From the NCBI RefSeq assembly GCF_017348835.2, contig NZ_CP071375.1: a stretch of 64,000 nt of DNA, one strand, 5' to 3'. A model generated the notes under the pieces. It saw only the letters and a list, made by a program, of their open reading frames with translations. It had not been told where the DNA came from and made no database searches. The position numbers and the translations under genes are program-made. The stretch is from Escherichia coli (GTDB taxonomy: Bacteria; Pseudomonadota; Gammaproteobacteria; Enterobacterales; Enterobacteriaceae). Each line of letters starts with the position of its first letter. Position 1 is the stretch's first letter. Positions 2,602 to 52,383 of the stretch are shown piece after piece.

Positions 2602-2607
2602 TTAAAA

Positions 2608-5195: not shown

Positions 5196-5212
5196 TTTAA
5201 TCACTTGTTGTT

Positions 5213-5248
5213 ATAAAAAATGAGGGCGCTGTATGTGACAGCGCCCTC
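5213..5248 (-). terminator. Intrinsic terminator downstream of the toxin gene
   Basis: Stem gagggcgctgt/acagcgccctc; on the minus strand it is followed by a U-run. Confidence 0.55.
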
Positions 5249-5269
5249 GTTCAGGTTACATAAAAAATA

Positions 5270-5860: not shown

Positions 5861-6015
5861 AGAGCACCTCCAGATATTATATTTTAATATAACATCTACG
5901 GCAGACGATGCACAACTATTCATCAGGTTCATTGTGGTTTCCTTAGTGTAATAAAGCGTGAAGAAAGCCTTAATCCATCGGAAGACAGATCCGGCAGTTT
6001 TCAAAGGCGACATTG

Positions 6016-6147
6016 CCGGTAAAAGGGCAACCGTCCTGATACATCAGGCGCTTCTTTCAGGTCATGAAGCATTTCGTACAGGCGGGAGCTTAGTGCGTAA
6101 CAAAGAAGGCCGATAATAGGAAACTGCTTTTGCAGTTCAAAGGATTA
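6016..6147. repeat. Imperfect direct repeat, copy B, flanking the toxin-antitoxin cassette
   Basis: Homologous to 5047-5195; contains palindrome cctgatacatcagg. Confidence 0.5.
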
Positions 6148-6208
6148 TGACGGTTCGGATAAACAAAATGCGGCGCAGCTTCCGTATCCGGGCTGCGCCG
6201 CAGGAACA

Positions 6209-6415
6209 TCAGCGGTAGCGCGAAGGCCAGATTTGCTCAGGCTTGAAGCCTAACGCTTCGGCAATTAACCTTTCGCCTTTGGGCCAGCGGCGGGTAAGCG
6301 CATTAGCCAGCGTGGAGGACGCCAGACCTGCCTGACGCGAAAGCGCTGACAGCGAAGTGCCTCGTTTTTTCAGCCCGGCGATAATGTCGGCAGGATGCCA
6401 GTCCTGCAGCATCAT
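6209..6415 (-). CDS. Ner/Nlp(SfsB)-family small DNA-binding protein
   Basis: 68 aa; WHPADIIAGLKKRGTSLSALSR...STLANAL...WPKGE...WPSRY matches the Ner/Nlp family. Confidence 0.8.
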   Translation of the reverse strand: MMLQDWHPADIIAGLKKRGTSLSALSRQAGLASSTLANALTRRWPKGERLIAEALGFKPEQIWPSRYR

Positions 6416-6873
6416 GCAGCCACCTCGTCGATAAACTTCACGCCGTCGGCGGTGCGGAGCCAGCGCGGGGCTTTCATTTCGGCGGCAAAATACCAGACCA
6501 GTTCACATAATAAGCCTGTTATCGTCTGCTCCACTTTTGGCTGCATCCCCTGCCCGATAAGAAGTTGCGCCAGCGTCAGTGAGTAATCACAAAGTAATTC
6601 TGCGTCGGGGACAAATCGGGGCATATCGGCAGGTAGAGCATCAACGGTCAGGCTGTCAGTCAGATGAGACGGGATGGGGTCGTTCAGCGTGGGTTGCAGC
6701 AAAGTGAGACAGGCGGCAAGTCGCCCGCAAAGCGCCAGCCGCAGCACCGGATCTTCGCTTTCGATCAGGGTTTCGGCGACGTTTTCGCAGTGGTCTGCCA
6801 GTACGGTAAAATCTGTGGCAGCACTGAAGGGAACAGCAAGTAACGGGTGTGTCTGAGTGGGGATCGTAGCCAT
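6412..6873 (-). CDS. Hypothetical protein, 4-bp overlap with the Ner-like gene
   Basis: 153-aa ORF with high GC and no motif I recognise; the overlap suggests an operon with the Ner-like gene. Confidence 0.5.
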   Translation of the reverse strand: MATIPTQTHPLLAVPFSAATDFTVLADHCENVAETLIESEDPVLRLALCGRLAACLTLLQPTLNDPIPSHLTDSLTVDALPADMPRFVPDAELLCDYSLTLAQLLIGQGMQPKVEQTITGLLCELVWYFAAEMKAPRWLRTADGVKFIDEVAA

Positions 6874-7035
6874 AAAGGCAGCCTCCAGTATGTGGTTTGA
6901 AAACCACCACCAGAGGTTCCAATCTCATGGGTGGTGGACTGAACGAGGTTGGAACTACCGGCCATACTGGAACCGGCGCACCTTACGGTGCCCCCGCCCA
7001 GCCCACCATAATTTTGGTGTAGCTAAGCGCGCGAC

Positions 7036-7058
7036 ATAAAAAAAGACGCAGACGCGTC
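7036..7058 (-). terminator. Possible intrinsic terminator for the AT-rich two-gene operon
   Basis: Minus-strand hairpin gacgc-gtct-gcgtc followed by a 7-nt U-run, about 190 bp downstream of the 534-aa ORF. Confidence 0.4.
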
Positions 7059-7243
7059 ACGTGTCGCCAGTATGGTTATATTTCGGGGTTCCAATCCCGG
7101 CACCTGATTTTGCAGGTGCGGGTAAAAGATACCGCTTTCGGTTGAAAACGGCAAGGGGAAGTCGTGGAATAGAGATCGCAGATTGTTATAAATATACACA
7201 ATAGTTAATGTTAACAAAGACGGCACATATATTAACTTTACTC

Positions 7244-8848
7244 TCAATCTGCTGAATAGTTTATCGCATGTAATTCTCGGGTCATATAGTGGATACCCTC
7301 CTTCTTTTCTTTCATCCCCTCTTGCCTCACCATAAAAGCAAACGAAAAAATTGCTGAACGAGTTATCTGAAGTAAATGCTCAAAATGGTGAATAAAATCA
7401 CTTTCTTTGATAAAAAGAATATCTTCTATTAGTTGATAAGATTCGTAAATGTCCTCAGGTTTATCACTTTTATGTACAACTAAAAACTTATGCTCTAAAC
7501 CATTGCGCCATTCTTTATAGAAAGCCAACTCCCCACCCTTATCTTTATTCAGGTCGGTAGCAATACTGTACAGCGCCAGAAGCCCTGGTGATTTTACCTT
7601 TTCAAATAATTGTCTTCTGTTATCAACATCTAACTGCCAGAAATTCTGAAAATAGATATTCTTCTGAGATGTACCTTTTTTTGTTGTTGGGTAAAGATTA
7701 TAAAGTTCACATATGGCTACCGCAATTTTATCAAGAATACCAAAGCAAAGACGAAATGCCGTCCTGATTTTTTCAATTTCTATTCCTAAAACTTCGTCAT
7801 TATACAATTCCAGAAAATGGCTTTCGTACTTAATGTAATCCGTATTTTGTGGATGAAGATAATCAAAATAAAGATGGCGTGCGAGTGAAAACTCCGATTT
7901 AAGGCGATTTAATACCATCTCCATGGGAATGATAAAATCACCTGTTACACCGCCTCGCGAAGCAATCACAAGATCATCTGTAGCACTCCCTACACATGGG
8001 CAATACAGGCCATGTTCTGATAAAGTCAGATGATTTCTAAGACAAAACTGTCGATATGGGCTTAACGCTTCGAACTCTTGTTGTGTAAGTGCTTCATCGT
8101 GTTCGTCAGTTTCATCATCAACAGCATATTCTGCGATTTTCTCGTTAGTCTGCGCTATGCGTTCTAAATAGAACGATTCCCATTGTGGTGGGATATTTTT
8201 TGATACAGACGCTTTAATATATCCTGCTCTCACTTCTTTTAGTAACTTGATTGAAAATGAAGATGAAATAAGATTGAGGACCATAAGTGACATCGAACGG
8301 TTGACCCAAGCCTGTGGTATATCTAATCCCTTAAGATTGGTAAGATCATAATATCTCAATGACTCACTGAGCCGAAATTGACTTCTTAATGAATTAGCCA
8401 AATTAACAGATAGTTCAGCCTGAAATTCCTCCTGCTCCTCAGCAGATAGCTTAAAAGAACGCCAGTAGATATTTTTTAAGGAAACCAATTCTTCTATCGA
8501 TTTGAATGTATGGTCATTGGGGTTAGTAATGCTCACCAGATTAGATAGCGCATTACCATAGTTATAATAGTAAAGGCACTCTCCTAACACTGATATAAAT
8601 GCTTCTTTGTTATCTTCCATCAGGTTGCAACCAAGCTCTGACGCATTTTTATTATTTTGCATCTGCCCGATGTCAACAAGAGCACCCGCAATGTTCGCCA
8701 ATACTATAAAGTAGTTATCGTTCCTGATTGTTATTCTTTCCAGTTTGTTCAGGAACGCAACTGACTGTTGATAAGATTCGTCAAATCTTCCAATATCAAC
8801 CAGTTGGCTAATGAAATTACTTTCATCGACAAGTTCTTTTGTTATCAA
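7244..8848 (-). CDS. Large hypothetical protein with C-terminal HEPN-like motif (candidate RNase effector)
   Basis: 534 aa, strongly AT-rich coding sequence, TTG start 12 nt after the upstream gene's stop. C-terminal EWRNGLEH fits the HEPN R-x4-H motif. Confidence 0.6.
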   Translation of the reverse strand: MITKELVDESNFISQLVDIGRFDESYQQSVAFLNKLERITIRNDNYFIVLANIAGALVDIGQMQNNKNASELGCNLMEDNKEAFISVLGECLYYYNYGNALSNLVSITNPNDHTFKSIEELVSLKNIYWRSFKLSAEEQEEFQAELSVNLANSLRSQFRLSESLRYYDLTNLKGLDIPQAWVNRSMSLMVLNLISSSFSIKLLKEVRAGYIKASVSKNIPPQWESFYLERIAQTNEKIAEYAVDDETDEHDEALTQQEFEALSPYRQFCLRNHLTLSEHGLYCPCVGSATDDLVIASRGGVTGDFIIPMEMVLNRLKSEFSLARHLYFDYLHPQNTDYIKYESHFLELYNDEVLGIEIEKIRTAFRLCFGILDKIAVAICELYNLYPTTKKGTSQKNIYFQNFWQLDVDNRRQLFEKVKSPGLLALYSIATDLNKDKGGELAFYKEWRNGLEHKFLVVHKSDKPEDIYESYQLIEDILFIKESDFIHHFEHLLQITRSAIFSFAFMVRQEGMKEKKEGIHYMTRELHAINYSAD

Positions 8849-8860
8849 AATAAATTTTCC

Positions 8861-22907: not shown

Positions 22908-24294
22908 ATCGTGAGAACGAGGCGAATATTAGCGATGCCCACCCACAATGTCAAAGCCTGTTTTTTAAATTTGAAATCGTTTGCTGAAATAATCTGCATT
23001 TTGTCGTTTATTCCGACACAACTGGCTTTTTTTCACACTTTTGCGGCTCGGATCGAGGGTATTTCCATAGCCAACGTCCAGTAACCATTCGCCAGTAAAA
23101 CAGCACGGCCCGCACAGCCCAGTCGGCAAACATTCCCATCCAGACACCAACCACACCCCAGCCAAGCATGATTCCCAGCACATAACCGACTACAACCCGA
23201 CAACCCCACATGCTCAACATCGAAACCCACATGGCGTAACGGGCATCACGAGCACCTTTAAATCCAGCGGGTAGCACCCATGAGGCGGACCAAATAGGCA
23301 TAAATAAAGCATTTAGCCAAATCAGAATCACAACGACATGTTTAACCTGTGGATCCTGGGTGTAAAACGATGCCATAAGCCCGGCAAAGGGAGCCGTTAG
23401 CCAGGCGATGGCCGTTAATCCAAGAGTGGACAGCCAGAACACATGCCGCAACTGAATCTCTGCTTGCGCTATCTGCCCTACCCCCAACCTTCGGCCTGTA
23501 ATGATCGTAGAAGCAGAGCCGAGCGCACTTCCGGGTAAGTTGATAAGAGCCGCAATTGAAAACGCGATAAAATTTCCGGCAATAACACTGGTCCCCATCC
23601 CGGCAACGAACATTTGGGTTAATAACCGACCACTGGTAAATAACACTGATTCGACACTCGCTGGAATACCAATCCCCATGACTTCCCAGATAATGCTAAA
23701 ATTCAGCGGTTTAAAATAGCTCTTTAACGAAATCCTTAGCGCAGGATTAAAACCAATCGCCAGCACCCACAAAATTGCAACTGCGCCAATATAACGAGAA
23801 ATGGTTAAACCCAACCCAGCCCCGACAAATCCCAGTCCCGGCCAGGAGAAAAGGCCGTAAATCAATATGCCGCTAATAATAATATTAAGAATATTCAGGC
23901 TACCGTTAATCAGTAGCGGTATTTTCGTATTCCCTGCACCACGAAGTGCCCCGCTACCAATCAAAGTGATGGCAGCTGCTGGATAACTGAGTACCGTCAG
24001 CTCCAGATAAGTCAACGCCAGTGCTTTAACTTCTGTCGTGGCATCACCCGCAACGAAATCAATAATTTGTTCGCCAAAATGATGAATAAGCGTTGCCAAC
24101 AGTACGGCAAACAAAGTCATGATCACCAATGACTGCCGCGTCGCCACCCTCGCTCGTCGTCGATCCCGCTTACCGAGACTAAATGCCACAACGACAGTAG
24201 TACCAAGATCGATAGCAGCAAAAAAAGCCATAATGACCATATTGAAGCTGTCTGAACCGCCCCGGGTTTCCTGGAGAGTGTTTTATCTGTGAAC

Positions 24295-25182
24295 TCAGGC
24301 TGCCAGATCATTATTTCCGATGGAAGCATAATAAGCTTTTTCTGCTTCTGCCGGAGGAATATGGCCCAGCCTTTCCAGCAATCGTCGATTGTTATACCAG
24401 TCCACCCACGTTAGTGTGGCCAGTTCCACTTCTGTCCGGTTTTTCCAGCTCTTACGGTGTATTACCTCCGCTTTGTAAAGACCATTGATGCTCTCAGCCA
24501 TCGCGTTGTCATACGAGTCGCCAGTACTCCCTGTTGATGCCAGTAATCCGGCTTCCTTAAGCCGCTGCGTGTAGGCCAGCGATACATACTGAGAACCTTT
24601 ATCACTGTGATGGATTGTGCCGGACGGCCGACGGGCCCACAACGCCTGCTCCAGTGCATCCAGCACGAATGTTGTTTCCATGGATGATGAGACCTGCCAT
24701 CCCACGATGTATCCGGCGAACACATCAATGATGAACGCCACATAAACGAAGCCCTGCCATGTGCTTACCCAGGTAAAATCAGCCACCCACAACTGGTCTG
24801 GACGTTCTGCCACGAACTGACGGTTTACGCGGTCGCATGCGGCAACGGCTTTCCGGCTGACGGTAGTGCGGACCTTTTTACCCCGGAGAACACCGGCAAG
24901 TCCCATAACTGCCATGAGACGTGCCACAGTGCATCTGGCCACTCTGATACCTTCCCGTAACAACTGACGCCAGACTTTACGCACACCGTATACCTGGTGA
25001 TTTTCATCGTATACGCGCTGTATCTCTTTCTTCAGCCAGTCATCGTGCTGCGCACGGGCACTGCGTTTATCCGGATGATGTCGCTGTTGCTGACAATGGT
25101 AATACGTTGACGGGGCAATATGCAGTTCGCTGCATACCGGTCCGACCCCGTACTGCTCACGCAGCTTATCCAGCAGTGGCAT
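24295..25182 (-). CDS. IS3-family transposase OrfB
   Basis: 295 aa, near-identical to 12141-13028. Confidence 0.85.
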   Translation of the reverse strand: MPLLDKLREQYGVGPVCSELHIAPSTYYHCQQQRHHPDKRSARAQHDDWLKKEIQRVYDENHQVYGVRKVWRQLLREGIRVARCTVARLMAVMGLAGVLRGKKVRTTVSRKAVAACDRVNRQFVAERPDQLWVADFTWVSTWQGFVYVAFIIDVFAGYIVGWQVSSSMETTFVLDALEQALWARRPSGTIHHSDKGSQYVSLAYTQRLKEAGLLASTGSTGDSYDNAMAESINGLYKAEVIHRKSWKNRTEVELATLTWVDWYNNRRLLERLGHIPPAEAEKAYYASIGNNDLAA

Positions 25183-25508
25183 TATTTTTTCCAGAGGCGG
25201 TCGAACTCCGCCTTCGCAAAATAAGCGGAAGCCTGGCGAAGGATATCGTTACTGCGGCGCAGTTCACGATTTTCACGTTCCAGCTCTTTCAGACGCTGAC
25301 GTTCAGCGGTGGTGAGTCCACCATCACCACTCCCGGTATCCCGCTCATGCTGGCGAACCCAGACACGCAGAGTCTCCGGCGTACAGCCAATCTTTGGGGC
25401 AATGGAACAAATTGCCGCCCACTGTGAGTCATATTCATCCTGACTTTCCAGAACCATACGAATCGCCCGCTGACGGACTTCGGGGGAAAAACGAGTATTT
25501 TTAGTCAT
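25182..25508 (-). CDS. IS3-family transposase OrfA
   Basis: 108 aa, identical to 11815-12141 product. Confidence 0.85.
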
Positions 25509-25968
25509 CCTGTTTACCTCTTTCTCAGGGAGTTTAGTCTCCAGGATTTCCGGGGCGGTTCAGTCCGCCAATCCCACGCCGGCCATCGCATCTTTTCCCA
25601 GCCAACTGACCAGAAAAGTGCTCAGGACACCCATCAGCAGGACACAGGCATTCTCCATGTAGATAGGAACAGCAAGCGGGGTTATCTCGCGCCAGAACAA
25701 CACTTTGTAACTCTTGCGTTTGGCGTGCCAGCGAGTGCCGTGAACAACCTGGCGTAAAGCAGAGGAGATATTCAAAGCCGACCTTAATTGCAGAAAGTGA
25801 AACCACATTTCAAATGATGAGGGAGAATCAGCAAAGCTGCAAAGATTTTCGCCAACAAATTGTCTGCAAATGCAACAAACTGTTGATAGAAACGGCAAAC
25901 AGTTGGGAAATTTAAAAATCGGGTTTGACAAAAGATTTTTCGCCGTTAAGATGTGCCTCAACAGCGAT

Positions 25969-28509: not shown

Positions 28510-29070
28510 TCATTCCAGATCAGCGTGTCGGGTAAACATTGTGGCACTGCTTTCACCCAGTTCCGACATCAACTGCAGAACAATTGCATCATAAGTAATA
28601 AAGCAGAGTTGCTCAAAAGCTGAGCCCATTGGTTGTGCGAAAGCGCCTGCAACACGATTGTTATCGTCTTTCACACTTCCTGGTAGTACCAACACAGATT
28701 GAGCTAATTTACCGATCGTCGAATCTGCTTTCATAGTTACCAGAGCTACGTTTACTCCGCTATCAACTGCTTTTTGTGCCAGACTTTTCAAACTGGTAGT
28801 TTCACCACTGCCTGACCCAATAATTAATAGATCTCCAGGTTGGGTATGCGGGGATGATATTTCTCCCACAACGCTTACTGAAAAACCTAAATGCAGCAAG
28901 CGATTAGCAAAAGCGCGAATAGCAATGCCACTGCGACCAGCTCCCTGCAAAAAAATATGCCGGGCATTTCTGATTTGCGAAATAAACTGTGCAGCCTGAG
29001 CATCGTCAATCTTCAGCGCATTACTCTCTAATTCATGCAGAATATTAATAGTATTTTCCTGAACACTCAT
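28510..29070 (-). CDS. SIS-domain sugar-phosphate isomerase (6-phospho-3-hexuloisomerase-like)
   Basis: 186 aa with SIS features (FLQGAGRSG...LLIIGSGSGET). Confidence 0.65.
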   Translation of the reverse strand: MSVQENTINILHELESNALKIDDAQAAQFISQIRNARHIFLQGAGRSGIAIRAFANRLLHLGFSVSVVGEISSPHTQPGDLLIIGSGSGETTSLKSLAQKAVDSGVNVALVTMKADSTIGKLAQSVLVLPGSVKDDNNRVAGAFAQPMGSAFEQLCFITYDAIVLQLMSELGESSATMFTRHADLE

Positions 29071-29084
29071 TTTTCTCTCCCTTT

Positions 29085-29837
29085 TTAAGCAATAGTCCGG
29101 CCACCATCCATTAAAATGGTTTGTCCCTGAATATAAGAGTTATCTTTATCTGCCAAAAATATTGCCAGGTTAGCCACATCATCGATAGTCCCCAGACGAC
29201 GGACGGGTATTTTTTCCAGGACAGCGTCTAAATCGGCTTGTGTTGGATAGTTGACCCGCATCATCTCTCCGGTGTCTATTAAGCGAGGAGCGATCGCATT
29301 AACATTGACGCCTTTTGGTCCTAACTCTTTTGCCAGCCCACGAATCAATCCTTCGCCTCCCGCTTTACTGGCAGGATAACTCACACCGCCCCCAGTCCCC
29401 GAAAGCGCTGATCCCGATGAGATATAAACAATAGATCCCTTATTTGTCAGGAAATCATCATAAAACGCCTTAACGGTATTAAACAAACCCGATAAGTTAA
29501 TTGCGATAGTCTTATTCCATTCCTCAAAAGAAATATTGTTAACTTTATTGGCAAATGCCACACCGGCATTTAATATCAACACATCAATGCGACCAAAGGT
29601 AGCAAATACCTTTTCCCGAACATCCACTAATGCCTGTGGATCGGAGACATCTGTTTTAACAAACAGCGATTTAACATCGCCAAAAGTTAACTCTGCTGCA
29701 GTGGCCTTGCCGTTCTCTTCGTTATAGTCAACAATAACAGTATGTGCACCACGATCAGCAAATTGTTTAGCTATCCCTTTGCCAATACCGTGAGCACCTC
29801 CGGTAACTAAAACCACTTTACCTGCAAAATTACTCAT
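29085..29837 (-). CDS. Short-chain dehydrogenase/reductase (SDR) family oxidoreductase
   Basis: 250 aa; N-terminal VTGGAHGIGKGIA dinucleotide-binding motif. Confidence 0.75.
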   Translation of the reverse strand: MSNFAGKVVLVTGGAHGIGKGIAKQFADRGAHTVIVDYNEENGKATAAELTFGDVKSLFVKTDVSDPQALVDVREKVFATFGRIDVLILNAGVAFANKVNNISFEEWNKTIAINLSGLFNTVKAFYDDFLTNKGSIVYISSGSALSGTGGGVSYPASKAGGEGLIRGLAKELGPKGVNVNAIAPRLIDTGEMMRVNYPTQADLDAVLEKIPVRRLGTIDDVANLAIFLADKDNSYIQGQTILMDGGRTIA

Positions 29838-29934
29838 TACTTTTCTCCATTAAAGATATTTTTTAGCTGAGGTTTTCCTCCCGATATGAAATCGAAAACC
29901 TCACTTAACTGGATGTGAAATTTTTAGATTGTGA

Positions 29935-30579
29935 TCACTGAACAGCGATTTTTAATGCCTGATAACTTTCACGAGGCTGTTTGTTAAATAAGGCACCACC
30001 AACAACAATAAGGTCAGCCCCTGCTTCTTTAACTTGTTTTACATTATCAAGATTAACGCCACCATCCACTTCAATTTGAATATCTCTGCCAGATATCATT
30101 TTTTTGGTATTACGGATTTTCTCCAGACTTTTATGAATAAATGTCTGGCCTGGTTGCCCTGGGTTAATTGTCATTAACAATATATAATCAATATCATCCA
30201 ATAAATATTCGATTACAGATTCAGGTGTCCCAGGATTAAGCACAACACCTGCTTTGCGACCCGCCTTTTTGATTTTTTGAATAATATAATGTACATGTGG
30301 CGTCGATTCATAATGTACAGAAATCATCTCCGCCCCGGTATTGATTACATCATCAATATGTCGCTCAGGATTTGCCAGCATCATGTGCACGTCAAAGATC
30401 ATCGAACTGGCTTTTTTCATTGCTGCTATTTGATTTGGGCCAAAGGCAATATTACTGACATAAGTGCCATCCATTAAATCAACGTGCAATATTTCGGTTT
30501 GTTCCTCTTCCAGAAAATGAATTTCATCTTTCAGGCGTAAAATATCCGCGCCAAATATAGAAGGTAATATTTTTGCCAT
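29935..30579 (-). CDS. Ribulose-phosphate 3-epimerase-family protein (SgcE/AlsE-like)
   Basis: 214 aa with Rpe-family features. Confidence 0.7.
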   Translation of the reverse strand: MAKILPSIFGADILRLKDEIHFLEEEQTEILHVDLMDGTYVSNIAFGPNQIAAMKKASSMIFDVHMMLANPERHIDDVINTGAEMISVHYESTPHVHYIIQKIKKAGRKAGVVLNPGTPESVIEYLLDDIDYILLMTINPGQPGQTFIHKSLEKIRNTKKMISGRDIQIEVDGGVNLDNVKQVKEAGADLIVVGGALFNKQPRESYQALKIAVQ

Positions 30580-30601
30580 GTTAAAACTCCAGAATATTAA
30601 A

Positions 30602-31855
30602 TCAATGTAATACGGTACTCAACCAATAGGTTAAAATTTCCCACGGGCCGGTTAATACAAAATCAGTACCTTGTCCTTGCAAGCCTACACCGGCTCCAGC
30701 TAAAAATGGCGTTGCCCCTGGTGCGACATAACCGCCTAAATACATCACTACAACGCAGAATAACAAGGTCGAGATAATCGAACGAATCACGTTACCGTTG
30801 CTCGCCATTACGGTCATGGTGGTCATATAAATAATTGACATCAATACGCCAATTGGGAAGATCTTAATATCAGGCAATACCAGAGCACATAGCATGGTTA
30901 AAGGAATGGTAATTACTGTCACGGTGACCGTCGCCTGATCCCCCAACGCTAGTGCACAATCCATACCGATGTTTAATTCAGCATCTTTACCCATCTGTTT
31001 TTGCATGATTTCTTTGGCACTTTTCCCTATTGGGTTAAGACCTTCCATCAGCACACCGACCACTTTAGGTAACAATACCATTACGCCAGCAACCCCCATC
31101 GCCATGGGAACAATTGTGGTAATTGCCTGTTTCGTTAAAACTCCGAGTAATGCGCCAACGATAACACCGATAATTGCAGGTTCACCAAAGACACCCAGGC
31201 GTTTTTGCACACTGTTTAAGTCAACATCTAACTTATTTAACCCTGGGATGTAATCAATGATTTTATTTACTACCCAGGCGAACGGTAGAGTCCAGCCGAT
31301 ATGAATCATCGTGGTACAGGTTGTTCCCTCGAGTCCATAATATTTTTGCCATCTGGGCGCAATCAAATCGCCAATAAACAGAGCCGCAATACTCAAAGCC
31401 ACCGCGACAGAGAAGCCGATGATAAAACTGTCGAACACAAAATATGCCAGAGCGCCCGGAACTAAAAAATGCATATAGTTCCAGATATCAACATTTAACG
31501 TTTTGGTTAATTTCAGGCGCACCAGTATCAGGTTAAGTACGATGCCAACTGGTATCACTAATGCGGCAAAAGGTGCTACCCATGCAGCAGCACCGACTGC
31601 TGGCCAACCAATATCTGCAACCGTAAAACCACTACCTACTTTTGAGTAAAACTCAATAGCTGGCTGTAATGAACTATTTAATAAACCAACAACCAAACCT
31701 AAACCAATAAAACCAATACCGACTGTGATGCCCGACTTGATCGCGGCACCGGGTTTCATTCTGAACACCAGACCTAAAATAAATATCACCAGCGGCAGTA
31801 TTGCAGTTGCCCCCATTCCGGTGATTGTTTCCATTAAATTTTTCAACATTTCCAT
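30602..31855 (-). CDS. PTS EIIC component, galactitol (GatC/SgcC) family
   Basis: 417-aa polytopic membrane protein with GatC-family sequence. Confidence 0.8.
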   Translation of the reverse strand: MEMLKNLMETITGMGATAILPLVIFILGLVFRMKPGAAIKSGITVGIGFIGLGLVVGLLNSSLQPAIEFYSKVGSGFTVADIGWPAVGAAAWVAPFAALVIPVGIVLNLILVRLKLTKTLNVDIWNYMHFLVPGALAYFVFDSFIIGFSVAVALSIAALFIGDLIAPRWQKYYGLEGTTCTTMIHIGWTLPFAWVVNKIIDYIPGLNKLDVDLNSVQKRLGVFGEPAIIGVIVGALLGVLTKQAITTIVPMAMGVAGVMVLLPKVVGVLMEGLNPIGKSAKEIMQKQMGKDAELNIGMDCALALGDQATVTVTVITIPLTMLCALVLPDIKIFPIGVLMSIIYMTTMTVMASNGNVIRSIISTLLFCVVVMYLGGYVAPGATPFLAGAGVGLQGQGTDFVLTGPWEILTYWLSTVLH

Positions 31856-31875
31856 TTTTATTATTCCTGTCAGGT

Positions 31876-32169
31876 TTAGCTATTTGCTAATTCAGTTAAT
31901 AACTCTCCTAATTTCTTACGTAATGCTCCTTCATTAATACCCGTTACAAAACCTGCAACACTCATATGTGGTTTCCCAATATCACCTTTATAGTTATTAG
32001 TTGTGAGTACAATATCTGCATGAGCCATCTCAGAAGAAAGTTCAGCCATACTGCATTTGTTGATTTTAAATGCCGTAATACCATATTCAGCACATACTGA
32101 CTTCACTTCATCAGCAGCAAGCGTAGATGTAGCGACACCGCTACCACAAGCAACAAGAATATTAATCAT
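31876..32169 (-). CDS. PTS EIIB component
   Basis: 97 aa with N-terminal ILVACGSGVATS cysteine-loop motif. Confidence 0.75.
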   Translation of the reverse strand: MINILVACGSGVATSTLAADEVKSVCAEYGITAFKINKCSMAELSSEMAHADIVLTTNNYKGDIGKPHMSVAGFVTGINEGALRKKLGELLTELANS

Positions 32170-32187
32170 AATAAACTCCAGTTTTTA

Positions 32188-32682
32188 CTATTGGATTATT
32201 TTGGACACAAAAAGTGCTTTTGCATCATCGACGGGAAGTGTCAGTAAGCTTTGGTAAAATTCTTCATTTTGGAGATGGTTAAATAATGACTTTAACAATC
32301 GAAGCTGGTCAGCAGGATCCGTAACAATAAGATTAACGACGAGTCTGACCCACAATATTCCATCTTCATCAGCCCTGTTCACAGGTATTGCGTCTGGCAG
32401 ACGGATGATATAAATAGCCGGTTGATTCGCATGTTCACTATCACAGTGTGGTATAGCGATAGAATAACCTTCCAGTTCTATTCCTGTCGGATATTCCGCT
32501 TCGCGTTTACGCATAGCATTGAGCCAGCTCTCTTTCACCGTATTCGTTTCACGATGCGTGTTATAAATATGTTCAAGCACGGCATCGTAGTTCTGTAGTC
32601 CCGCACCATCGGCAACACTGATCGATATCATATCCTTCCCCCTCACCCCACAATGCTCACATGAGCATTGAACAATCTTCAT
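32188..32682 (-). CDS. PTS EIIA component (type 2 family); start uncertain
   Basis: Contains AIPHCDSEH active-site-His region; a shorter product from an internal Met near 32634 is plausible. Confidence 0.65.
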   Translation of the reverse strand: MKIVQCSCEHCGVRGKDMISISVADGAGLQNYDAVLEHIYNTHRETNTVKESWLNAMRKREAEYPTGIELEGYSIAIPHCDSEHANQPAIYIIRLPDAIPVNRADEDGILWVRLVVNLIVTDPADQLRLLKSLFNHLQNEEFYQSLLTLPVDDAKALFVSKIIQ

Positions 32683-32967
32683 ATGAGCAGTTATAGCACA
32701 ACGATCCTGTGGATGAATGACGAGATCTGAGAAATTAAATCCAGATCACAAAAGCACATAATGGCGACAGTATTTATGCTCATATGAGCAAATCATGATT
32801 CAAAAAATGATTTCTTCGAAAAAAATGAGGTAAAACTGGCAATATGCAGAGGATGCACTCAATAGAGGACGCTAAGCAAGCATCGCCATGGATGCTCACT
32901 TGATAATTAGGAAATGATTACATTTGGCAAAGCTGATTCGAAGGGAGAAGGCGTGTCGTAGTGAGTT

Positions 32968-33723
32968 CTAACAGGTTATTACTGACGTGTATTTTGCGAC
33001 TTCGGCAATCCCCTCTTTGTCGGCATGATCGTTGGTTATAAGGGCGGTGATCTCCGACCAGTCGCAGATCTTAAACAAACTGCTGCGCTCAAACTTGGTG
33101 TAATCGCCGAGGATATATTTTTTGTCTGAGTGCGAAATTATCGTGCGATCCAAAAACGCATCAGAAGAAGAAGGCGTCGATGGACCAGTCATGTTACTAA
33201 AGCCGTCGGTTCCAATAAAACAGAGATCAACATGTATATCGTTGATCATAGATACCGCCCACCCCCCAAACACTGAGGAACTCTTTCTACGCAGTTCGCC
33301 GCCAAAGAGAAAAACCTGGTTGTCAGATTCAATCAACACACTGGCAACGGGGAGCGAATCTGTGAAGATTTTAAACCCAGATTTCATACATAACAGGTTA
33401 GCCAGCTCAAAAGTGGTACTGCCCGTACCGATAATCATCGAACTATTAGGTGGAATGAAATCAAGCGCTTTGCGAGCAATCGCCTTCTTATAAGAGTTAT
33501 TTTCTTTTTCCCTGACCTGAAAGGGATGCTCTATGGCCCTTTGCTTTAAAGTCGCCCCACCATGGCTTTTGATCAGCAGCCCTTTTTGTTCAAGATGGGT
33601 CAAATCTTTCCTGATGGTTTCATACGTTACTTCATACTTTCGTGCAAGATCACTGACATAGACCGTACCTGCCGACATTAAGTCTTCAAGTATTAACTTT
33701 CGCCTTTCATCAACCAGATACAT
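32968..33723 (-). CDS. DeoR-family transcriptional regulator
   Basis: 251 aa; N-terminal HTH (RRKLILEDLMSAGTVYVSDLARKYEVTYETIRKDL) and C-terminal sugar-phosphate sensor region. Confidence 0.8.
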   Translation of the reverse strand: MYLVDERRKLILEDLMSAGTVYVSDLARKYEVTYETIRKDLTHLEQKGLLIKSHGGATLKQRAIEHPFQVREKENNSYKKAIARKALDFIPPNSSMIIGTGSTTFELANLLCMKSGFKIFTDSLPVASVLIESDNQVFLFGGELRRKSSSVFGGWAVSMINDIHVDLCFIGTDGFSNMTGPSTPSSSDAFLDRTIISHSDKKYILGDYTKFERSSLFKICDWSEITALITNDHADKEGIAEVAKYTSVITC

Positions 33724-34071
33724 CCTTCCTCCTGAAAACTATTACCCATCTTAGAAAACGCCAAGCATAGCACAGATGATGCAAACAAAAACAAACACTA
33801 ACAGTGGAAAGTACAAATAAACCCAATAAAGACAATAGTTCAAAAACCATATATCCGATTGATAATAAATGAGTTTTTATTATTCATTACAACGCCACTG
33901 TACAATCCCAATTTGTCCCAATTGGCTTAATTTATTAATTATTTGTTTTTGTTGGTTTTTAATATCATAAAAATCAATTAGTTATAAATTTTGTGATTCA
34001 GATCTCAATTGACAACCAATATTTACCAATAGCATACTTGGCTTTAGTTACTTAACGACAGGCAAAATGAA

Positions 34072-34608
34072 ATGAAAACAAAGATTGCTATCGCAAGCGA
34101 TGATGTAGGTTTTGCACGTAAAGAGGAGATAAAAAAATACCTCATAGAAGAGAAAAACATGGAGATCGTGTACGATCCCGTCACATGTAAGGAACAAGGT
34201 GTCAATAACTTCGCGCGTCTGGCCGACGAAATGGCAGGCATTATTCAACGCGATGAGTGCCGTCTGGGAATTTACATTTGTGGGACTGGCATTGGCTTTA
34301 CTTGTCAGATCAACAAACACTGGGGCATAAGAGCCGTTGCGGTTACTAACCCCTACTCCGCAAAGCGGGCGCGACTCAGCAATAACGCACAAGTTATTGG
34401 ACTGGGTTGCCGGGTCAACGATCTCGAATACAGCAAAATGATTGTCGATGCATGGTTGGATAACCCATTCGACTTCACCACCGCCAGAGAAAATTCTAAA
34501 AAGAACTTGCTAGAAGCTGAACGTAACGATAATGCATTGCTGGTTAAGCCCGCTGATGTACGCTGGAATATGGGTTTCCGACCAGATGATGAAAAATCTG
34601 AGGGTTAA
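34072..34608 (+). CDS. RpiB/LacA/LacB-family sugar-phosphate isomerase
   Basis: 178 aa with RpiB-family features. Confidence 0.7.
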   Translation: MKTKIAIASDDVGFARKEEIKKYLIEEKNMEIVYDPVTCKEQGVNNFARLADEMAGIIQRDECRLGIYICGTGIGFTCQINKHWGIRAVAVTNPYSAKRARLSNNAQVIGLGCRVNDLEYSKMIVDAWLDNPFDFTTARENSKKNLLEAERNDNALLVKPADVRWNMGFRPDDEKSEG

Positions 34609-34611
34609 TGT

Positions 34612-35982
34612 ATGGAACTGATCACGCAATTTATAAACGATCTGGGAAATTTTATATTTATCCCGGTCATCTTCCTGGTACTGATGAAGATACTTGGCCG
34701 TCCTCTTTCAGAATGTATCTCGTCTGCCATCAAAGTCGGCATTGGTTTCATTGCGTTAACCATGACCATCAAACTGATGCTGGAAAAAATGCAACCGGCA
34801 GTCACCGGATTAGCAGAAGCAACAGGTTCCTCGCTCAGTGCCATCGATGTTGGTGGCGCAGCGACTGCAGTTATGGGATTTGGCTCCAGCATGGGCGCTA
34901 TCATTATTCCCCTCTGTGTTGCGGTAAATATTGCAATGCTGGTCGCCCGCCTGACTGACTGTGTTAACGTTGATGTTTTCAACCTTCATCAAAATGCGTC
35001 AATGGGGGCAATTGTTGGCGTCTATTCTGGCAGCTTCCTGTATGGCGCATTGACCGCCGCGCTATTCCATGTCTGGGCGCTGATCGCTGCCGATCTTGGT
35101 GCTAAAAATAACGAAAAATTCTTTAACCTGCCAAAAGGTGTTGCGATCTCTCACCCGGTTGCCAATACCTACTTACTTTTCGCTTATCCATTCAACTGGA
35201 TTTATGATCGCATCCCAGGCTTCCGTAATCTGAATGTGACCGCCGAAACTATTCAAAAACGGTTTGGCATTCTCGGCGATCCAACTATGGTTGGTTTTAT
35301 TATTGGTATTTTATTGGGCTTTTGTGGTTATGGCTGGAAATCCCCATACCACACCATAATCGCCAGCCTACAGTTAGGGATGTATCTGGCTGCGGTCATG
35401 CTTCTGTTGCCACGTATGACCTCTATCATGATGGAAGGGCTTGTTCCGCTTTCTAACGTAGCACGCAAAAAACTGGTCAAACGTTTCCCGGATCGTCAAA
35501 TCACTGTTGGCATGGACACTGCCCTGATTGTGGGTCATCCGTCAGTTATCGCCCCTGCATTATTACTGATTCCGGTAATTGTGATCCTCGCCGTAATCTT
35601 GCCTGGCAACCGCGTTATGCCACTGGGTGACCTCTCTCAGTTTGTGTTTTTCATTGCCTGCATGGTACCTGTTTTCAATGGCAACATTATTCGCACCTGG
35701 GTGACCTCGATCATATTGTTTGGTGGTGGTCTGTATATTGCGTCGTGGATGGCACCGGCTACCAACGAAGTCTTCCAGAAATTTGGTACAAACCCGGATG
35801 CCAGCGTGATGTACTCTTCGCTTAACCCGTCAGCGAATCCATTTACTGGTCTGTTTGCCGCCCTGAGCCATGTTGGAATCATTGGCTATGTGATGGCAGG
35901 TATCCTTTTGTTATCTATCGGATACTTAATTAAACAAAAATCACGTCGCCAGATTGAAACGGATTTGGAAAAAGCGCTTTAA
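34612..35982 (+). CDS. PTS EIIC component, galactitol family (second copy)
   Basis: 456-aa membrane protein, paralogous to the EIIC at 30602-31855. Confidence 0.8.
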   Translation: MELITQFINDLGNFIFIPVIFLVLMKILGRPLSECISSAIKVGIGFIALTMTIKLMLEKMQPAVTGLAEATGSSLSAIDVGGAATAVMGFGSSMGAIIIPLCVAVNIAMLVARLTDCVNVDVFNLHQNASMGAIVGVYSGSFLYGALTAALFHVWALIAADLGAKNNEKFFNLPKGVAISHPVANTYLLFAYPFNWIYDRIPGFRNLNVTAETIQKRFGILGDPTMVGFIIGILLGFCGYGWKSPYHTIIASLQLGMYLAAVMLLLPRMTSIMMEGLVPLSNVARKKLVKRFPDRQITVGMDTALIVGHPSVIAPALLLIPVIVILAVILPGNRVMPLGDLSQFVFFIACMVPVFNGNIIRTWVTSIILFGGGLYIASWMAPATNEVFQKFGTNPDASVMYSSLNPSANPFTGLFAALSHVGIIGYVMAGILLLSIGYLIKQKSRRQIETDLEKAL

Positions 35983-36005
35983 ATCTTTTACAGAGGAATA
36001 ATCAA

Positions 36006-36290
36006 ATGAAAAAAATATTAGTAGTTTGCGGAAACGGAATTGCCTCATCTTCCATCATGGTCTCTGTACTGCAGGACTTCCTGAAAGAAGAGAAAATTGA
36101 AGCGCAAGTCGATAAATCTTCGTTAATGGCATGCACCAGCGATACCTTCAACAGCTATGACCTGGTAGTTTCATCAACCAAACTCGATAACCCGGCCATT
36201 ACTACTCGTGTCATCGTTGGCGCTGGATTACTGACTGGTCTGGGCGAAGATGAGATTTTCGCTGCAGTTAAAGAAGAGATGTTGAAATAA
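36006..36290 (+). CDS. PTS EIIB component (second set)
   Basis: 94 aa with VVCGNGIASS motif. Confidence 0.75.
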   Translation: MKKILVVCGNGIASSSIMVSVLQDFLKEEKIEAQVDKSSLMACTSDTFNSYDLVVSSTKLDNPAITTRVIVGAGLLTGLGEDEIFAAVKEEMLK

Positions 36291-36300
36291 CAGGTGTGCA

Positions 36301-36759
36301 ATGAAATTTGAAATTCTGGTGAATGATGTTGATAACAGCATCAGTGACTATCAAACGGCGATCACCTTTGCTGGTACGCAATTATTGGAAAAAGGCTACA
36401 TCACTGCAGAATACATTGACGCCTGCCTGGAACGTGAAAAAAACTATCCGACAGGGCTAATGATGGCAAACGGTCAGGGTATCGCCATTCCCCATGCCGA
36501 TTACACGCTGGTAAATGTAAACAGTATCAGTATTGTTCGTTTCGCCAATGATGTCACTTTCGGGCAAATGGAAGATGCTGATTTAACAGTTGATTGTAGC
36601 ATTATGTTTAACCTGGCATTTGCCACCAGTGATCAACATATGTCGATATTGCGTCGTTTATTCACACTGTTTCAGGATAACGCCTTTGTTGAGACTTGCC
36701 GCAATTTACCTGCAACGCGCGTGGCTAAATATGTAGAGGATACGCTCGCAGCATCCTGA
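36301..36759 (+). CDS. PTS EIIA component (second set)
   Basis: 152 aa with GIAIPHAD active-site-His region. Confidence 0.7.
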   Translation: MKFEILVNDVDNSISDYQTAITFAGTQLLEKGYITAEYIDACLEREKNYPTGLMMANGQGIAIPHADYTLVNVNSISIVRFANDVTFGQMEDADLTVDCSIMFNLAFATSDQHMSILRRLFTLFQDNAFVETCRNLPATRVAKYVEDTLAAS

Positions 36760-36810
36760 AATTAAAAGGGCAGAATCAGCGGTACTGCCCTTTCTTCACT
36801 GATACGGCTA

Positions 36811-37788
36811 TTAATCCAGAAGTTTAATGGCCGTATCAAAATCAGTAATTAAGACATTCAAAAGTCCGGATTTCAGCGAAGCAAGGATGCCTTCATATTT
36901 TTCTTCTCCTCCAGCGACACCAATCACTTTTTTGGCTTTTTGTAGTTGATCCATCGAAATGCCAAATCCCAGACGTTCAATAGGACTATGAAGAATCTTC
37001 CCTTCCCTGTTGACCAACGAGATACACACATCCGCAGCGATATCTTGTTGAAACAAAGCTTCGCACCAGGTATCCGGAAATATTTTACACAAGCTTGAAG
37101 AACCAGATTTCCAGTCACCTATCCCGGTGATAACCACATCCAACTGTGAGTAATATTGCTGTGTATCTAATACCGCAGGATCACCTGCCAGTCTGGCAGC
37201 AAGCTCTTCGTCATCGACCCACATCGGCACGTACATTGGGTGCGCTTTTCCCTGCGAAATGGCTGCGATCTTATGAATAAGATCTATTGGCCCTTGACTG
37301 AACTCAATCCCCGGATGTACGCCAGATAACTGCACAACGTCTAAAGGAGGCAACTTGCTCAACTTACTGACCGTGCTTGATAATACACGCCCCCAGGCGA
37401 TCCCCACTTTCATACCTTCATGAAGAGATTGCATAAGATATTCAGCGGTGACTTCACCCAATTTGTGATTGAGTTCTTCTTGCGTCGTCCAGGATTCTGC
37501 AACTGAAAGAACAATTGCATCTTCCAGATGAAATTTTTTCCGTAGATTATTAGCGATTTCTTCATCCATCGCTTGCTGCTTAGGGAAGATAAACCTCACG
37601 TAATCCTGTTCGATCGCCTCATCGATCAATCTGGCAACTTTAAAGCGGGAAACGCCAAGCTCCTCTGCAATCTCAATCTTGGTTTTCATATCCGCAAAAT
37701 AACGTCTGACCACGAGCGAGTATATGTAGCGAGGATCGTAACCCTGCCAGCGGCTGTTTTTTTTCTGTTTCGTCATTCTCTTTTCCAT
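36811..37788 (-). CDS. SorC/DeoR-type sugar-binding transcriptional regulator
   Basis: 325 aa with N-terminal HTH and C-terminal sugar-binding domain typical of SorC-family regulators. Confidence 0.7.
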   Translation of the reverse strand: MEKRMTKQKKNSRWQGYDPRYIYSLVVRRYFADMKTKIEIAEELGVSRFKVARLIDEAIEQDYVRFIFPKQQAMDEEIANNLRKKFHLEDAIVLSVAESWTTQEELNHKLGEVTAEYLMQSLHEGMKVGIAWGRVLSSTVSKLSKLPPLDVVQLSGVHPGIEFSQGPIDLIHKIAAISQGKAHPMYVPMWVDDEELAARLAGDPAVLDTQQYYSQLDVVITGIGDWKSGSSSLCKIFPDTWCEALFQQDIAADVCISLVNREGKILHSPIERLGFGISMDQLQKAKKVIGVAGGEEKYEGILASLKSGLLNVLITDFDTAIKLLD

Positions 37789-40028: not shown

Positions 40029-40772
40029 TTATAGCAGTGCCAGCAGGAAGACCAGTTCACCAAGCTCTATAGCTGCTCCCAGCGTATCGCCGGTTTGCCC
40101 GCCCAGCGTACGTTTGAGAAGCTGACCGAGGATGAAAATCGCCACCATCGTCACCACCATAGCAGCCACACCATGCATACCCGGCAATAATACGGCAGCA
40201 AAAATAGCGGCTAAGCCGAGTGTGACGCAAGTTTGTCGCCCATCAATTTTGCCAATGAACACATTGCCAAGTCCTTCTTCCCGGGCATAACGATGACGAT
40301 ACATCAATAATGCGGCAGTCCCGCGGCTGACCGCACATGCTGCCGCCAGCGATGCAAGGATCGGTTCGCCACGCAGAGCCAACTCGCTTAACACCAGAAT
40401 CTTTGCCAGTACAACAAAAATCAATGCCAGACCGCCGTGGGTGCCTAAACGGCTATCACGCATGATTTCCAACATGCGATCGCGGCTACGTGCAGAAAAT
40501 ACGCCATCACAGGTATCGGCGAGGCCGTCCAGGTGGAATCCCCCGGTCATCAGCGCCAGCGCCAGCACGCTAAACAGTGCCGCCAGTGGTACACCAAACC
40601 ATGCCTGCAACGCCATGAAGACCAGCCCGCTAATCGCGCCAAGCAATAAACCAATTAAAGGAAAAGTAATAATACCGCGAGAATAATGCTCGAAATCCAG
40701 TCCCTGGGACCAGCGACGCGGTACAGGCAGACGCGTAATAAATGAGAGCATCGCCCAAAATAATTTACTCAT
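40029..40772 (-). CDS. cobS: Cobalamin 5-prime-phosphate synthase
   Basis: Membrane protein; start placed at [11 protein letters not shown], overlapping the cobU stop. Confidence 0.85.
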
Positions 40773-41314
40773 TTGATTTTTACTCCAATACCCGAAACCA
40801 CCAGCCATACTTCATTTGCCGCAGCGGCCAGCTGCTGATTTACCCGCCCGGCAATATCACGAAAATGTCGTGCCAGACGACTCTCCGGCACAATCCCCAT
40901 TCCCACTTCGTTAGTCACTAATACAACCTTTGCGGGGCAACGTTGGCAGGCAGCAATCAACGACTGAATCTCAGCATTAATCGCCTGTTCCATCGCCTGA
41001 TAATCCCATTCATCAGGGTCTTTATCGCCGCCATAATCAAACAACAGATTAGTCACCATTGTGGTAACGCATTCCAGCAACACAGCTTCATGCGGGTTAA
41101 TGTCTGCATGAATTAATTCATCAAGATGTTGCCAACGCTCCACCGTGCGCCAGTGCGCCGGACGGCCTTGCCGATGATGTTCTATCCGTGCAGCCATCTC
41201 ATCATCAAGGATTTGCGAGGTGGCGATATACAGAACCTGTGAAGAGTCCCCAATAAGCGCCTCTGCGTGGCGACTCTTCCCGCTCCGTGCGCCCCCCGTC
41301 ACCAAAATCATCAT
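40769..41314 (-). CDS. cobU: Adenosylcobinamide kinase / adenosylcobinamide-phosphate guanylyltransferase
   Basis: 181 aa with P-loop GGARSGKS. Confidence 0.9.
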
Positions 41315-41447
41315 ACCTACTCCTGATTCAATTGTATGATGGTATTCATTGAACAGAACAATGGATCCCCCACCGTTGCTGACCGCAAAACATTTACACG
41401 ATTAATACTGCGCGTAATATAATTAAAAATCCAGCATTCTCAATCCA

Positions 41448-41807
41448 TTACGAAAGAAGATGGCATTGCGGAATAGCCCGACTTCCTCGTGTTAACGTAT
41501 GACAAAATGCGTCATTGACAGCGGTTTCTCTGGAATGACAGATTTCATTCAGATAATGGATTAATGCTACAGTCCCACCAGCCGGACCAGTCAGCAAACG
41601 GGCATTGTGTTCTGCAATCAAAATTACCGTCGTTCCCTCAGAATGAGCGAGCCATTCTGGTACGGATATCTCGCTTTCAGCTGCTATCAATAGCTGCACT
41701 GAATAATCGCTATACGCATCTGATAATGATTGCACAGACCCACCGTTAAGAGGCTGGAAATCTTGCTGCCAGTCCTCACGGATAAAACCGCAGCCTCTAC
41801 AGTGCAC
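41448..41807 (-). pseudogene. Gene remnant upstream of cobU (possibly the 3-prime end of a cobyric-acid-synthase-like gene)
   Basis: 119-aa ORF immediately upstream of cobU on the same strand with no convincing start context; assignment is by position only. Confidence 0.3.
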
Positions 41808-41809
41808 TG

Positions 41810-42082
41810 TTGGTCAGTGCCTGCGAAGCGGACATTATCGCGCTGGTGCTTAATGCGGACGCACCGTGGTCACCTTTTTCGCCAGGCTTTACCTCGTCAA
41901 TGAATCGCCCGGTCATTGGAGTAGTAACCAAAGCAGATTTAGCCAACATGGAACAAATATCTTTGGTGAAATGTTGGTTACGGGAAGCTGGAGCGCACAA
42001 CGTGTTAGTAACCAGTGCGGTTAATAACAATAGAGTTGCAGAACTTTTTGCCTTGCTGCATATAGAAGAAGTCTGTCGCTAA
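41810..42082 (+). pseudogene. yoeF: EutP/PduV-like fragment (yoeF-type remnant)
   Basis: 90-aa fragment resembling the C-terminus of small EutP/PduV GTPases, at the cobU-yeeX junction. Confidence 0.4.
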
Positions 42083-42182
42083 TTTCGACAGGTCCTCAGA
42101 TGGGAATGATGACGGTGATACACAGAAAAGAATCAATGAGCAATGAGGGTTGCCAAGCAACCCTCATTGAATAAAACAGGAA

Positions 42183-42512
42183 TTACTTCGCTTCGCCGTT
42201 TTTCATTTCGCCCATAGCTTTCAGCTTTTTGGAGATATCACGGCGTTCTTTGGAGAGCTCGGCATTTTTGATGATGTAATCGTCAACACGATCTTCATAG
42301 TCACCTTTCATGCTAGCGATGATGCCCTGGATTGCTTCAACGCTCATCCCCGGCTTGATGTAATCACTCAGGTTGTCCAGCAGCAGGACGCGCTTCTGGT
42401 TGTCACGGATCTTTTTCTCAACGTCCTGAATTTCACGTTGCAGTTTGTTCTTACGACGGAACAGGCGAACAAATTCCAGTACGTCCTGGAATGAAGGCTT
42501 GGTAGTTTCCAT
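42183..42512 (-). CDS. yeeX: DUF496-family protein
   Basis: Product from the internal Met ([14 protein letters not shown]...), about 109 aa. Confidence 0.85.
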
Positions 42513-42683
42513 TTTTATACCCCTGATAATGTGAGAGTCGGATTCGTTTAAGCAACCGCTATTCGTTAGGGCCAACATTACTCATAGCTGCCGCAGATGA
42601 CAATGCTTTTATCCCTTTTCACTATCATACCCTTTATCCTTGCTGAATCGAAGCAGCAGCAAGATGATTCTGAAGTTCAGGAA

Positions 42684-51454: not shown

Positions 51455-52279
51455 TTACTCCAGCGGCATTACCAGCGGATCGGGATACTGGTATTCAAAC
51501 CCCAGTTCATTACAAATCCGACTGCCATCAATAATCTTACCTTTGCCGCTGTCCAGACTATTTCTGAACTGCGGAGGTTCCAGCCCCAGTAAACGGGCCA
51601 TCTGCGGATAGAAAACATTACGCGCAGGGTGAGCTGGCGCACATATATTATAGATGTGTCCGCCTTTAGGTGCCTGTAACAACAGAGTGATAGCGCCAAT
51701 AACATCTTCTAAATGGACTAAATTAACACCATGTTCACCATCAGGCGCGGTTTTTCCGGCAAAGAAGCGTCCGGGATGACGTCCCGGTCCGACCAGGCCC
51801 GCAAGACGCAGAATATCGACCGAAGTACCGGGTAAATTGTGCAGCCAGTCTTCAAGTTCTTCTAATACTCGTCCACTGTTGGTTACCGGATTACGCGGGG
51901 TAGTTTCTTTCACCGTGCCTTGCGCGTCGCCATAGACAGATGTTGAGCTGGTGAAAATAATGCGGGGAATACGATGGGCCAGCGCGCTATCTACTAACTC
52001 TTGTACCGCTTGTAAATAGAACTCATCGCCGGGGCCGCTACGACGGGCCGGAAGCGTAATGACCAGCGCATCGGCATCCATCAGGGCATCCAGATCGTCA
52101 GAATCGCAAACTAACTCAGGCTCCATGCGAAGCAGATAGCTATCAATGCCACTCATTCGGGCCGCTTCGACACCATCTTGTGTGGTTTTACTCCCGGTGA
52201 CTTGCCAGCCTCGCGCTGAAAGTGACATCGCCAGCGGCATGCCTAACCACCCTAACCCGACAATTGCGACCTTTTTCAT
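51455..52279 (-). CDS. yeeZ: NAD-dependent epimerase/dehydratase-family protein
   Basis: 274 aa with Rossmann motif (VAIVGLGWLG). Confidence 0.85.
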   Translation of the reverse strand: MKKVAIVGLGWLGMPLAMSLSARGWQVTGSKTTQDGVEAARMSGIDSYLLRMEPELVCDSDDLDALMDADALVITLPARRSGPGDEFYLQAVQELVDSALAHRIPRIIFTSSTSVYGDAQGTVKETTPRNPVTNSGRVLEELEDWLHNLPGTSVDILRLAGLVGPGRHPGRFFAGKTAPDGEHGVNLVHLEDVIGAITLLLQAPKGGHIYNICAPAHPARNVFYPQMARLLGLEPPQFRNSLDSGKGKIIDGSRICNELGFEYQYPDPLVMPLE

Positions 52280-52383
52280 CCGTTATCTCCTGATACACCT
52301 TAGATCTATAAGGCTACGCTAGCGTATCAAAACTGACAATTCATTCTATGAATGAAATCGAAACTGTTAGCAAATATACAATT

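Follow-up and report, generated by a model that had tools for sequence, protein, structure and literature searches.

A short cobU-yeeX interval in Escherichia coli as a probable scar of pdu operon deletion, distinct from a precise empty CP4-44 site

Main finding

The 868 bp that separate cobU from yeeX (tmaR) at positions 41315-42182 of the window, by which we mean the whole 64,000-nucleotide stretch of Escherichia coli DNA analysed here, are best read as the non-functional scar of a 17,254-bp deletion that removed a propanediol-utilisation (pdu) operon. We put the probability of this reading at roughly 0.9. The gene remnants that lie in the interval, previously interpreted as what is left beside a missing cryptic prophage, correspond instead to the two ends of that deletion in a pdu-positive arrangement. 

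Both the presence or absence of CP4-44 at cobU-yeeX and the gain and loss of pdu in E. coli are already published, and the feature is in that respect ordinary. Three elements are new: a deletion junction resolved to the base; the identification of K-12 yoeF and of the “cobalamin biosynthesis protein” fragment as relics of pduV and cbiG and not prophage genes; and a census of 5,426 complete E. coli genomes that contains no precise empty site for the island. As wider background, loss and reacquisition of cob/pdu were reportedly described by Lawrence and Roth in 1996, and E. coli is said to keep only cobUST of the cob operon.

The interval and its boundary genes

The two boundary genes, cobU and yeeX/tmaR, have the same orientation as in K-12 (Table 1). 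The original prediction had placed about 870 bp between them, with two fragmentary ORFs inside, one of them EutP/PduV-like; the gap measures 868 bp from the ORF limits, the two ORFs are there, and a C-terminal Pfam match to the PduV-EutP family bears out the assignment of the right-hand one. Gene calls for the interval were taken from the PGAP record of the E. coli PE164 chromosome (NZ_CP114128.1; pig, China), which is 100% identical to the window over the stretches tested. In PGAP the 90-aa ORF is a pseudogene that lacks the N-terminus, the 119-aa ORF is a “hypothetical protein,” and no pdu genes are annotated at the interval in PE164.

Close relatives of this particular sequence are few, with identity of at least 99% over window positions 41100-42400 in just 2 of the 5,426 genomes. 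On the cobU side (window 40769-41619), identity to K-12 is about 94%; variation of this order is unusual in E. coli core DNA and agrees with a position in the hypervariable O-antigen/his zone. Among pduV alleles synonymous divergence reaches 0.16, a level characteristic of the hypervariable DNA that borders the O-antigen locus.

Table 1. Features in and next to the cobU-yeeX interval (window coordinates)
Feature	Position	Strand	Basis and remarks
cobU	40769..41314	-	left boundary, first gene of cobUST; ORF, Pfam CobU E 2.2e-64, PGAP in PE164
sigma-70 promoter-like TTGAGA-16-TATATT upstream of cobU	41416..41443	-	consensus scan, 10/12 matches; conserved with K-12
cbiG' (CbiG-N-terminal-like pseudogene), 5'-truncated, 111 codons + stop	41448..41783	-	colinear with the 145-aa ORF of D4, 19A14 and ETEC4070
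119-aa chimeric ORF, probably made by deletion	41448..41807	-	ORF list; junction inside the ORF
280-bp segment missing from K-12-type (island-bearing) genomes	41620..41899	.	alignments with K-12
AAAAC at the probable deletion junction, present in both parental sequences	41784..41788	.	blastn block overlap with D4; base-by-base comparison
pduV' remnant, last 98 codons + stop of a 147-codon EutP/PduV gene	41786..42082	+	colinear with D4 pduV from codon 49
90-aa ORF within pduV'	41810..42082	+	Pfam PduV-EutP (PF10662), positions 59-142 of 143, E 4.1e-23
hairpin with a 13-bp stem, shortly after the yeeX/tmaR stop	42141..42169	-	RNA fold -22.4 kcal/mol, z -3.77
yeeX (tmaR)	42183..42512	-	right boundary; Pfam DUF496 E 3.2e-45; PGAP tmaR, WP_000450409.1

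The pdu-positive arrangement and the deletion junction

In E. coli D4, 19A14 and ETEC4070, the stretch from cobU to tmaR holds a 145-aa ORF annotated as “cobalamin biosynthesis protein,” then a cobalamin riboswitch, followed by pocR, pduF and pduA-pduU; an EutP/PduV gene of 147 codons closes the series, its end 100 bp away from tmaR. The riboswitch was verified in D4 (RF00174, 107.8 bits), whereas an Rfam scan of window 41315-42182 returned no family and hence no cobalamin riboswitch. In pdu-positive E. coli, RF00174 lies about 220 bp upstream of the 145-aa CbiG-N-terminal-like ORF that directly precedes cobUST (D4 locus L003, 20349-21179, with loci L007 and L008 alike); this compact layout of riboswitch, cbiG' and cobUST is what deletion of the cbi genes has left.

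When the window is compared with D4 by blastn, two blocks account for the whole interval and its flanks. The left block joins window 40769-41788 to L003 19670-20689 at 97.7% identity, and the right block joins window 41784-42600 to L003 37939-38755 at 97.4% identity; in D4 the two are 17.25 kb apart, and in the window they overlap by the pentamer AAAAC. Compared base by base, each of the three pdu-positive genomes has AAAAC at the two parental sites. The window is, in other words, the pdu-positive arrangement minus 17,254 bp. Missing from it are codons 1-32 of cbiG', then the riboswitch, pocR, pduF and pduA-U, and codons 1-48 of pduV, a part that includes the P-loop and the DTPG motif. 

Alignment places the same junction in four of four divergent scar genomes, which differ by 2-3% across the interval; a junction common to all of them speaks for a single deletion, with the flanks recombining afterwards. 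Just to the left of AAAAC, four bases (window 41780-41783, GGAT) match neither D4 parent exactly, and their equivalents among scar genomes read CAAT, CGAT, AGAT or GGAT, with CAAT nearest to the parental CAAC; because these junction-side bases vary, the exact crossover point is slightly uncertain.

A simple course of events can be envisioned. The progenitor would have carried cobT-cobS-cobU, a decayed cbiG' remnant, the cobalamin riboswitch, pocR, pduF, and pduA-pduV, with yeeX 100 bp beyond. Illegitimate recombination between two AAAAC pentamers, one in codon 32-33 of cbiG' and the other in codon 48-49 of pduV, would then, in the lineage from which the present allele came, have removed 17,254 bp in a single event and fused the two truncated genes, cbiG' and pduV', tail to tail on opposite strands. 

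The direction of change, from a pdu-positive progenitor by deletion, is read from sequence comparison. Insertion of a pdu segment into a scar-like site would give the same pattern, but deletion is strongly favoured because the two truncated genes become complete only when pdu is present. Scar alleles differ at up to 14% of synonymous sites in pduV', and divergence of this extent calls for subsequent recombination of the flanking DNA or, with lower probability, for recurrent deletion.

The K-12 island as an alternative allele

The same two genes enclose 13.27 kb in K-12 MG1655, against 868 bp in the window. The K-12 stretch contains IS5, fragments of yoeA (TonB-dependent receptor) split by IS2, a yeeP (GTPase) fragment, agn43/flu, yeeR, yeeS, yeeT, cbeA, cbtA, yeeW, a DUF957 fragment, yoeD (a truncated transposase fragment), and yoeF. 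The MG1655 annotation agrees exactly with the map on which the original prediction relied, with CP4-44, including flu and the cbtA/cbeA pair, between cobU and yeeX. The predicted absence of CP4-44 from this strain's interval also stood up to searches with the island itself: the 12.7-kb K-12 island has no blastn match in the whole 64-kb window, and the sole tblastn match among ten island products is yoeF, which hits the pduV' remnant. 

What did not survive is the further claim of an empty-site configuration, at least in the strict sense. Pairwise alignment shows that homology to K-12 ends at window position 41619 and restarts at 41900; in K-12 the island stands in place of the intervening 280 bp, which the window retains. 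A precise join of the K-12 flanks was sought with a 50-bp synthetic query (41595-41619 joined to 41900-41924, such that neither half can seed alone) and was found in 0 of the 5,426 complete E. coli genomes.

The most durable of the competing readings, although in our judgement a very unlikely one, is that the interval is nonetheless a true CP4-44 / GI-cobU attachment site, either never occupied or precisely excised, such that K-12 equals the window sequence plus an island. It draws on the position of the K-12 island between the same two genes, on the lack of island DNA in the window, and on the publication of “cobU-yeeX” as the CP4-44 insertion site by Archer et al. (2011), with K-12 and B as carriers and W and Crooks without it (PMC3032704). 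Against it stand the 280 bp missing from K-12, which make the difference a replacement and not a simple insertion, the lack of any genome in which the flanks are precisely joined, and the nature of the island's edges. At its left edge the island has an internal piece of an IS4-family transposase (MG1655 locus L002, 20512-20606; L009 20033-20221), the truncated transposase fragment yoeD lies about 70 bp inside the right edge (L002 33000-33199), and neither an integrase nor a tRNA gene is annotated beside either edge. 

CP4-44 / GI-cobU is a separate alternative allele of the locus, one that replaces a slightly larger segment than the scar (41620-41899). The same left junction borders a much larger island in E. 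coli M-17, and an island is found at cobU in CFT073 as well (PMC3155842). Island junctions that are shared by 72-77% of the 5,426 genomes, together with flanks that are nowhere among them precisely rejoined, suggest one ancient replacement, as opposed to site-specific integration of a prophage. 

A broader proposition can be built on these patterns, which we hold tentatively and at slightly less than even odds: that cobU-yeeX is an old multi-allelic polymorphism (pdu, CP4-44/GI-cobU, and at least two deletion scars), and that CP4-44 never integrated here in a site-specific manner but is a one-off replacement allele that spread by homologous recombination of its flanks in the hyper-recombining region beside the O-antigen locus.

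Distribution of the alleles

Among the 5,426 complete genomes, K-12-type island junctions occur in 3909 (left) to 4171 (right), or 72-77%, and the pdu operon in about 643 (about 12%). The window-type scar accounts for 201 genomes (3.7%) and a shorter scar for 139 (2.6%), and the remaining genomes, about 5%, were assigned to none of these four alleles. Junctions were counted with 50-bp queries of which neither half seeds alone, and the scar was counted through the 280-bp diagnostic segment 41620-41899. This segment is contiguous in 201 of the genomes, and in about 646 its two parts lie far from each other, the latter figure agreeing with the pduC-positive count of 642-643. Longer junction queries (120-160 bp) are confounded, as the search joins pieces up to about 560 bp apart; a 120-bp query undercounted the scar (137 vs 201), probably owing to dense polymorphism around the junction. 

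The census also answers a possible objection, that the remnants might be intact genes in most strains: 642 of the 5,426 genomes carry pduC, and most genomes have a pduV fragment that is shorter than the one in the window (yoeF, 60 codons).

The shorter scar (460 bp), as seen in strain ij001, lacks window positions 41498-41905 and has a 2-bp overlap at its junction. It may have arisen from the longer scar by a further deletion, since at least one genome with the window-type scar, UMB200201_11, has flanks identical to those of ij001 over the 120-bp junction query. In ij001 the neighbouring yeeA is interrupted by IS621, an IS110-family element (L004 3675-5891).

The high frequency of the island lends some appeal to the idea that the scar arose when an island-bearing ancestor lost a K-12-type island and had its flanking sequence restored: island genomes being the majority (72-77%), most recombination donors and recipients carry the island. 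We regard this as marginally less probable even than a true empty attachment site. Deletion cannot regenerate 280 bp, so that import from a scar or pdu-positive donor would be needed; such import by homologous recombination moves a scar but does not create one; and the pdu-positive sequence already explains the scar junction base for base. Deletion from a pdu-positive progenitor remains the preferred account.

Coding status of the two remnants

The right-hand remnant, pduV', matches NCBIfam TIGR02528 over positions 57-140 of 142 and begins after the residues DTPGEYLE of the D4 protein. A complete EutP/PduV G domain would have an N-terminal P-loop and a DxxG motif; pduV' has neither the P-loop nor the DTPG motif, and an in-frame TAA (41783-41785) lies directly upstream of its frame. 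Because pduV' lacks these nucleotide-binding motifs, both ORFs are regarded as pseudogene remnants. Pairwise pN/pS in pduV' is 0.03-0.6, a range drawn from few substitutions and of low power, with synonymous divergence up to 0.16; the low values are largely polymorphism inherited from functional pduV alleles.

In the left-hand 119-aa ORF, the last 111 codons are cbiG', and the GTG start lies within antisense pduV sequence. In GF43 the start differs, and the annotated ORF has 111 aa. Pfam scans matched neither the 119-aa ORF nor its intact 145-aa homologue in D4. Against NCBIfam NF004463 (cobalt-precorrin 5A hydrolase, CbiG), the D4 ORF matches over positions 1-123 with E 2.3e-19, and the cbiG' fragment of the window matches with E 0.0055; as the NF004463 match is far below the full-length cut-off, the 145-aa ORF is itself a remnant. 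The same CbiG-N-terminal match rules out the 3' end of cbiP, which the Salmonella gene order would lead one to expect here, as the identity of the left remnant. Pairwise pN/pS in cbiG' is 0.26-1.9 overall and 0.57-1.45 in pairs that include the window (again few substitutions and low power), and values near 1 even among pdu-positive strains indicate relaxed constraint.

Least probable of all is that both ORFs are functional small genes under selection, one a truncated PduV-like GTPase domain and the other a CbiG-N-like protein, for although both frames are open in four divergent scar genomes, PGAP annotates the 119-aa ORF as a protein, and pN/pS in pduV' is low, the missing motifs and upstream stop of pduV', the inherited nature of most of its apparent constraint, the pN/pS near 1 in cbiG', the antisense N-terminus and shifting start of the 119-aa ORF, and the still shorter fragments carried by 77% of genomes all speak against it.

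Signals kept in the interval and predicted consequences

Two candidate regulatory signals have outlasted the decay of the genes around them. The promoter-like element upstream of cobU, within the 300 bp nearest to that gene, agrees in hexamers and spacing with the constitutive sigma-70 cobUST promoter that Shimada et al. (2014; PMC3946193) list for K-12. Judged by this conserved element, cobUST would probably be expressed in this strain without riboswitch control. At the other end of the interval, the hairpin downstream of yeeX is likely the yeeX terminator: none of 200 shuffles was as stable, and the structure is kept in K-12 and in all alleles compared. A simple terminator scan did not call it, because its T-run is interrupted.

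With the pdu operon and its riboswitch deleted, a PE164-like strain (pig) should be unable to use 1,2-propanediol via Pdu, and its cobUST genes, having no B12 riboswitch upstream, should be uncoupled from that control.

Other variable features of the window

Several further differences were observed across the window and are recorded here in their own right. Between ldtA and tRNA-Asn, about 9 kb (window 28510-37776) encode two PTS systems, sugar-phosphate isomerases/epimerase, an SDR oxidoreductase and HxlB, together with DeoR-type and SorC-type regulators; tRNA-Asn is just about 55 bp from ldtA in K-12, and the segment is on that account regarded as a strain-variable sugar-utilisation islet. 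At window 23008-25808 the MATE efflux transporter gene yeeO is split by an IS3-family element, with an ALIL frameshifting pseudoknot at 25111-25227; another copy of this IS, at about 11815-13028, has an ALIL of its own at 12096-12212. 

The first part of the window (1-16500) holds an island, abutted by a yeeJ-like Ig-like adhesin gene truncated by IS3. The island includes integrases and an IS66 element, a MazE/MazF-type toxin-antitoxin pair (about 5270-5860), and a 946-aa hypothetical protein next to an LA2681-family HEPN protein (about 7244-11701) that together form a possible defence pair; Rfam matches to C4 antisense RNA, isrK and EFASI RNAs at 4526-7132 point to a P4/satellite-like element. 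The yeeZ-hisL gap is about 430 bp (window 51900-52330) and has no annotated gene. In K-12 this gap presumably houses the yefM-yoeB toxin-antitoxin pair, which the present strain appears to lack.

Significance and comparison with known systems

The main value of these results lies in correct annotation. Fragments beside cobU that are labelled yoeF-like or “cobalamin biosynthesis protein” are cbi/pdu relics, and strains free of the island are not to be taken as carrying its attB. The allele census could also serve as a typing marker, at a locus linked to host adaptation (pdu, canine ST372) and to Ag43 biofilm formation.

Three known systems invite comparison. The cob/pdu region of Salmonella is homologous to the pdu locus of E. 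coli. Within E. coli, the segment pocR-pduF-pduA..V between cobU and yeeX is variably present among lineages, e.g., canine ST372 (PMC9997745). Both flanks of the window interval are colinear with this E. coli locus, and the remnants are its cbiG' and pduV ends; the difference is that the window lacks 17,254 bp, and with them all functional pdu genes, pocR, pduF and the B12 riboswitch.

With the CP4-44 / GI-cobU polymorphism, the window shares the locus and the flanking genes, and it is island-free as reported for W and Crooks. It differs in keeping 280 bp that island genomes lack and is for that reason not a precise empty site.

The closest single counterpart is K-12 yoeF, a 60-codon EutP/PduV pseudogene adjoining yeeX. 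Both are 3' remnants of pduV, placed and oriented alike, with 88% identity over 59 aa. The difference is one of length, since yoeF retains 60 codons and the window 98: the K-12 island junction is at 41900, and the breakpoint in the window falls 112-116 bp upstream of it, at 41784-88.
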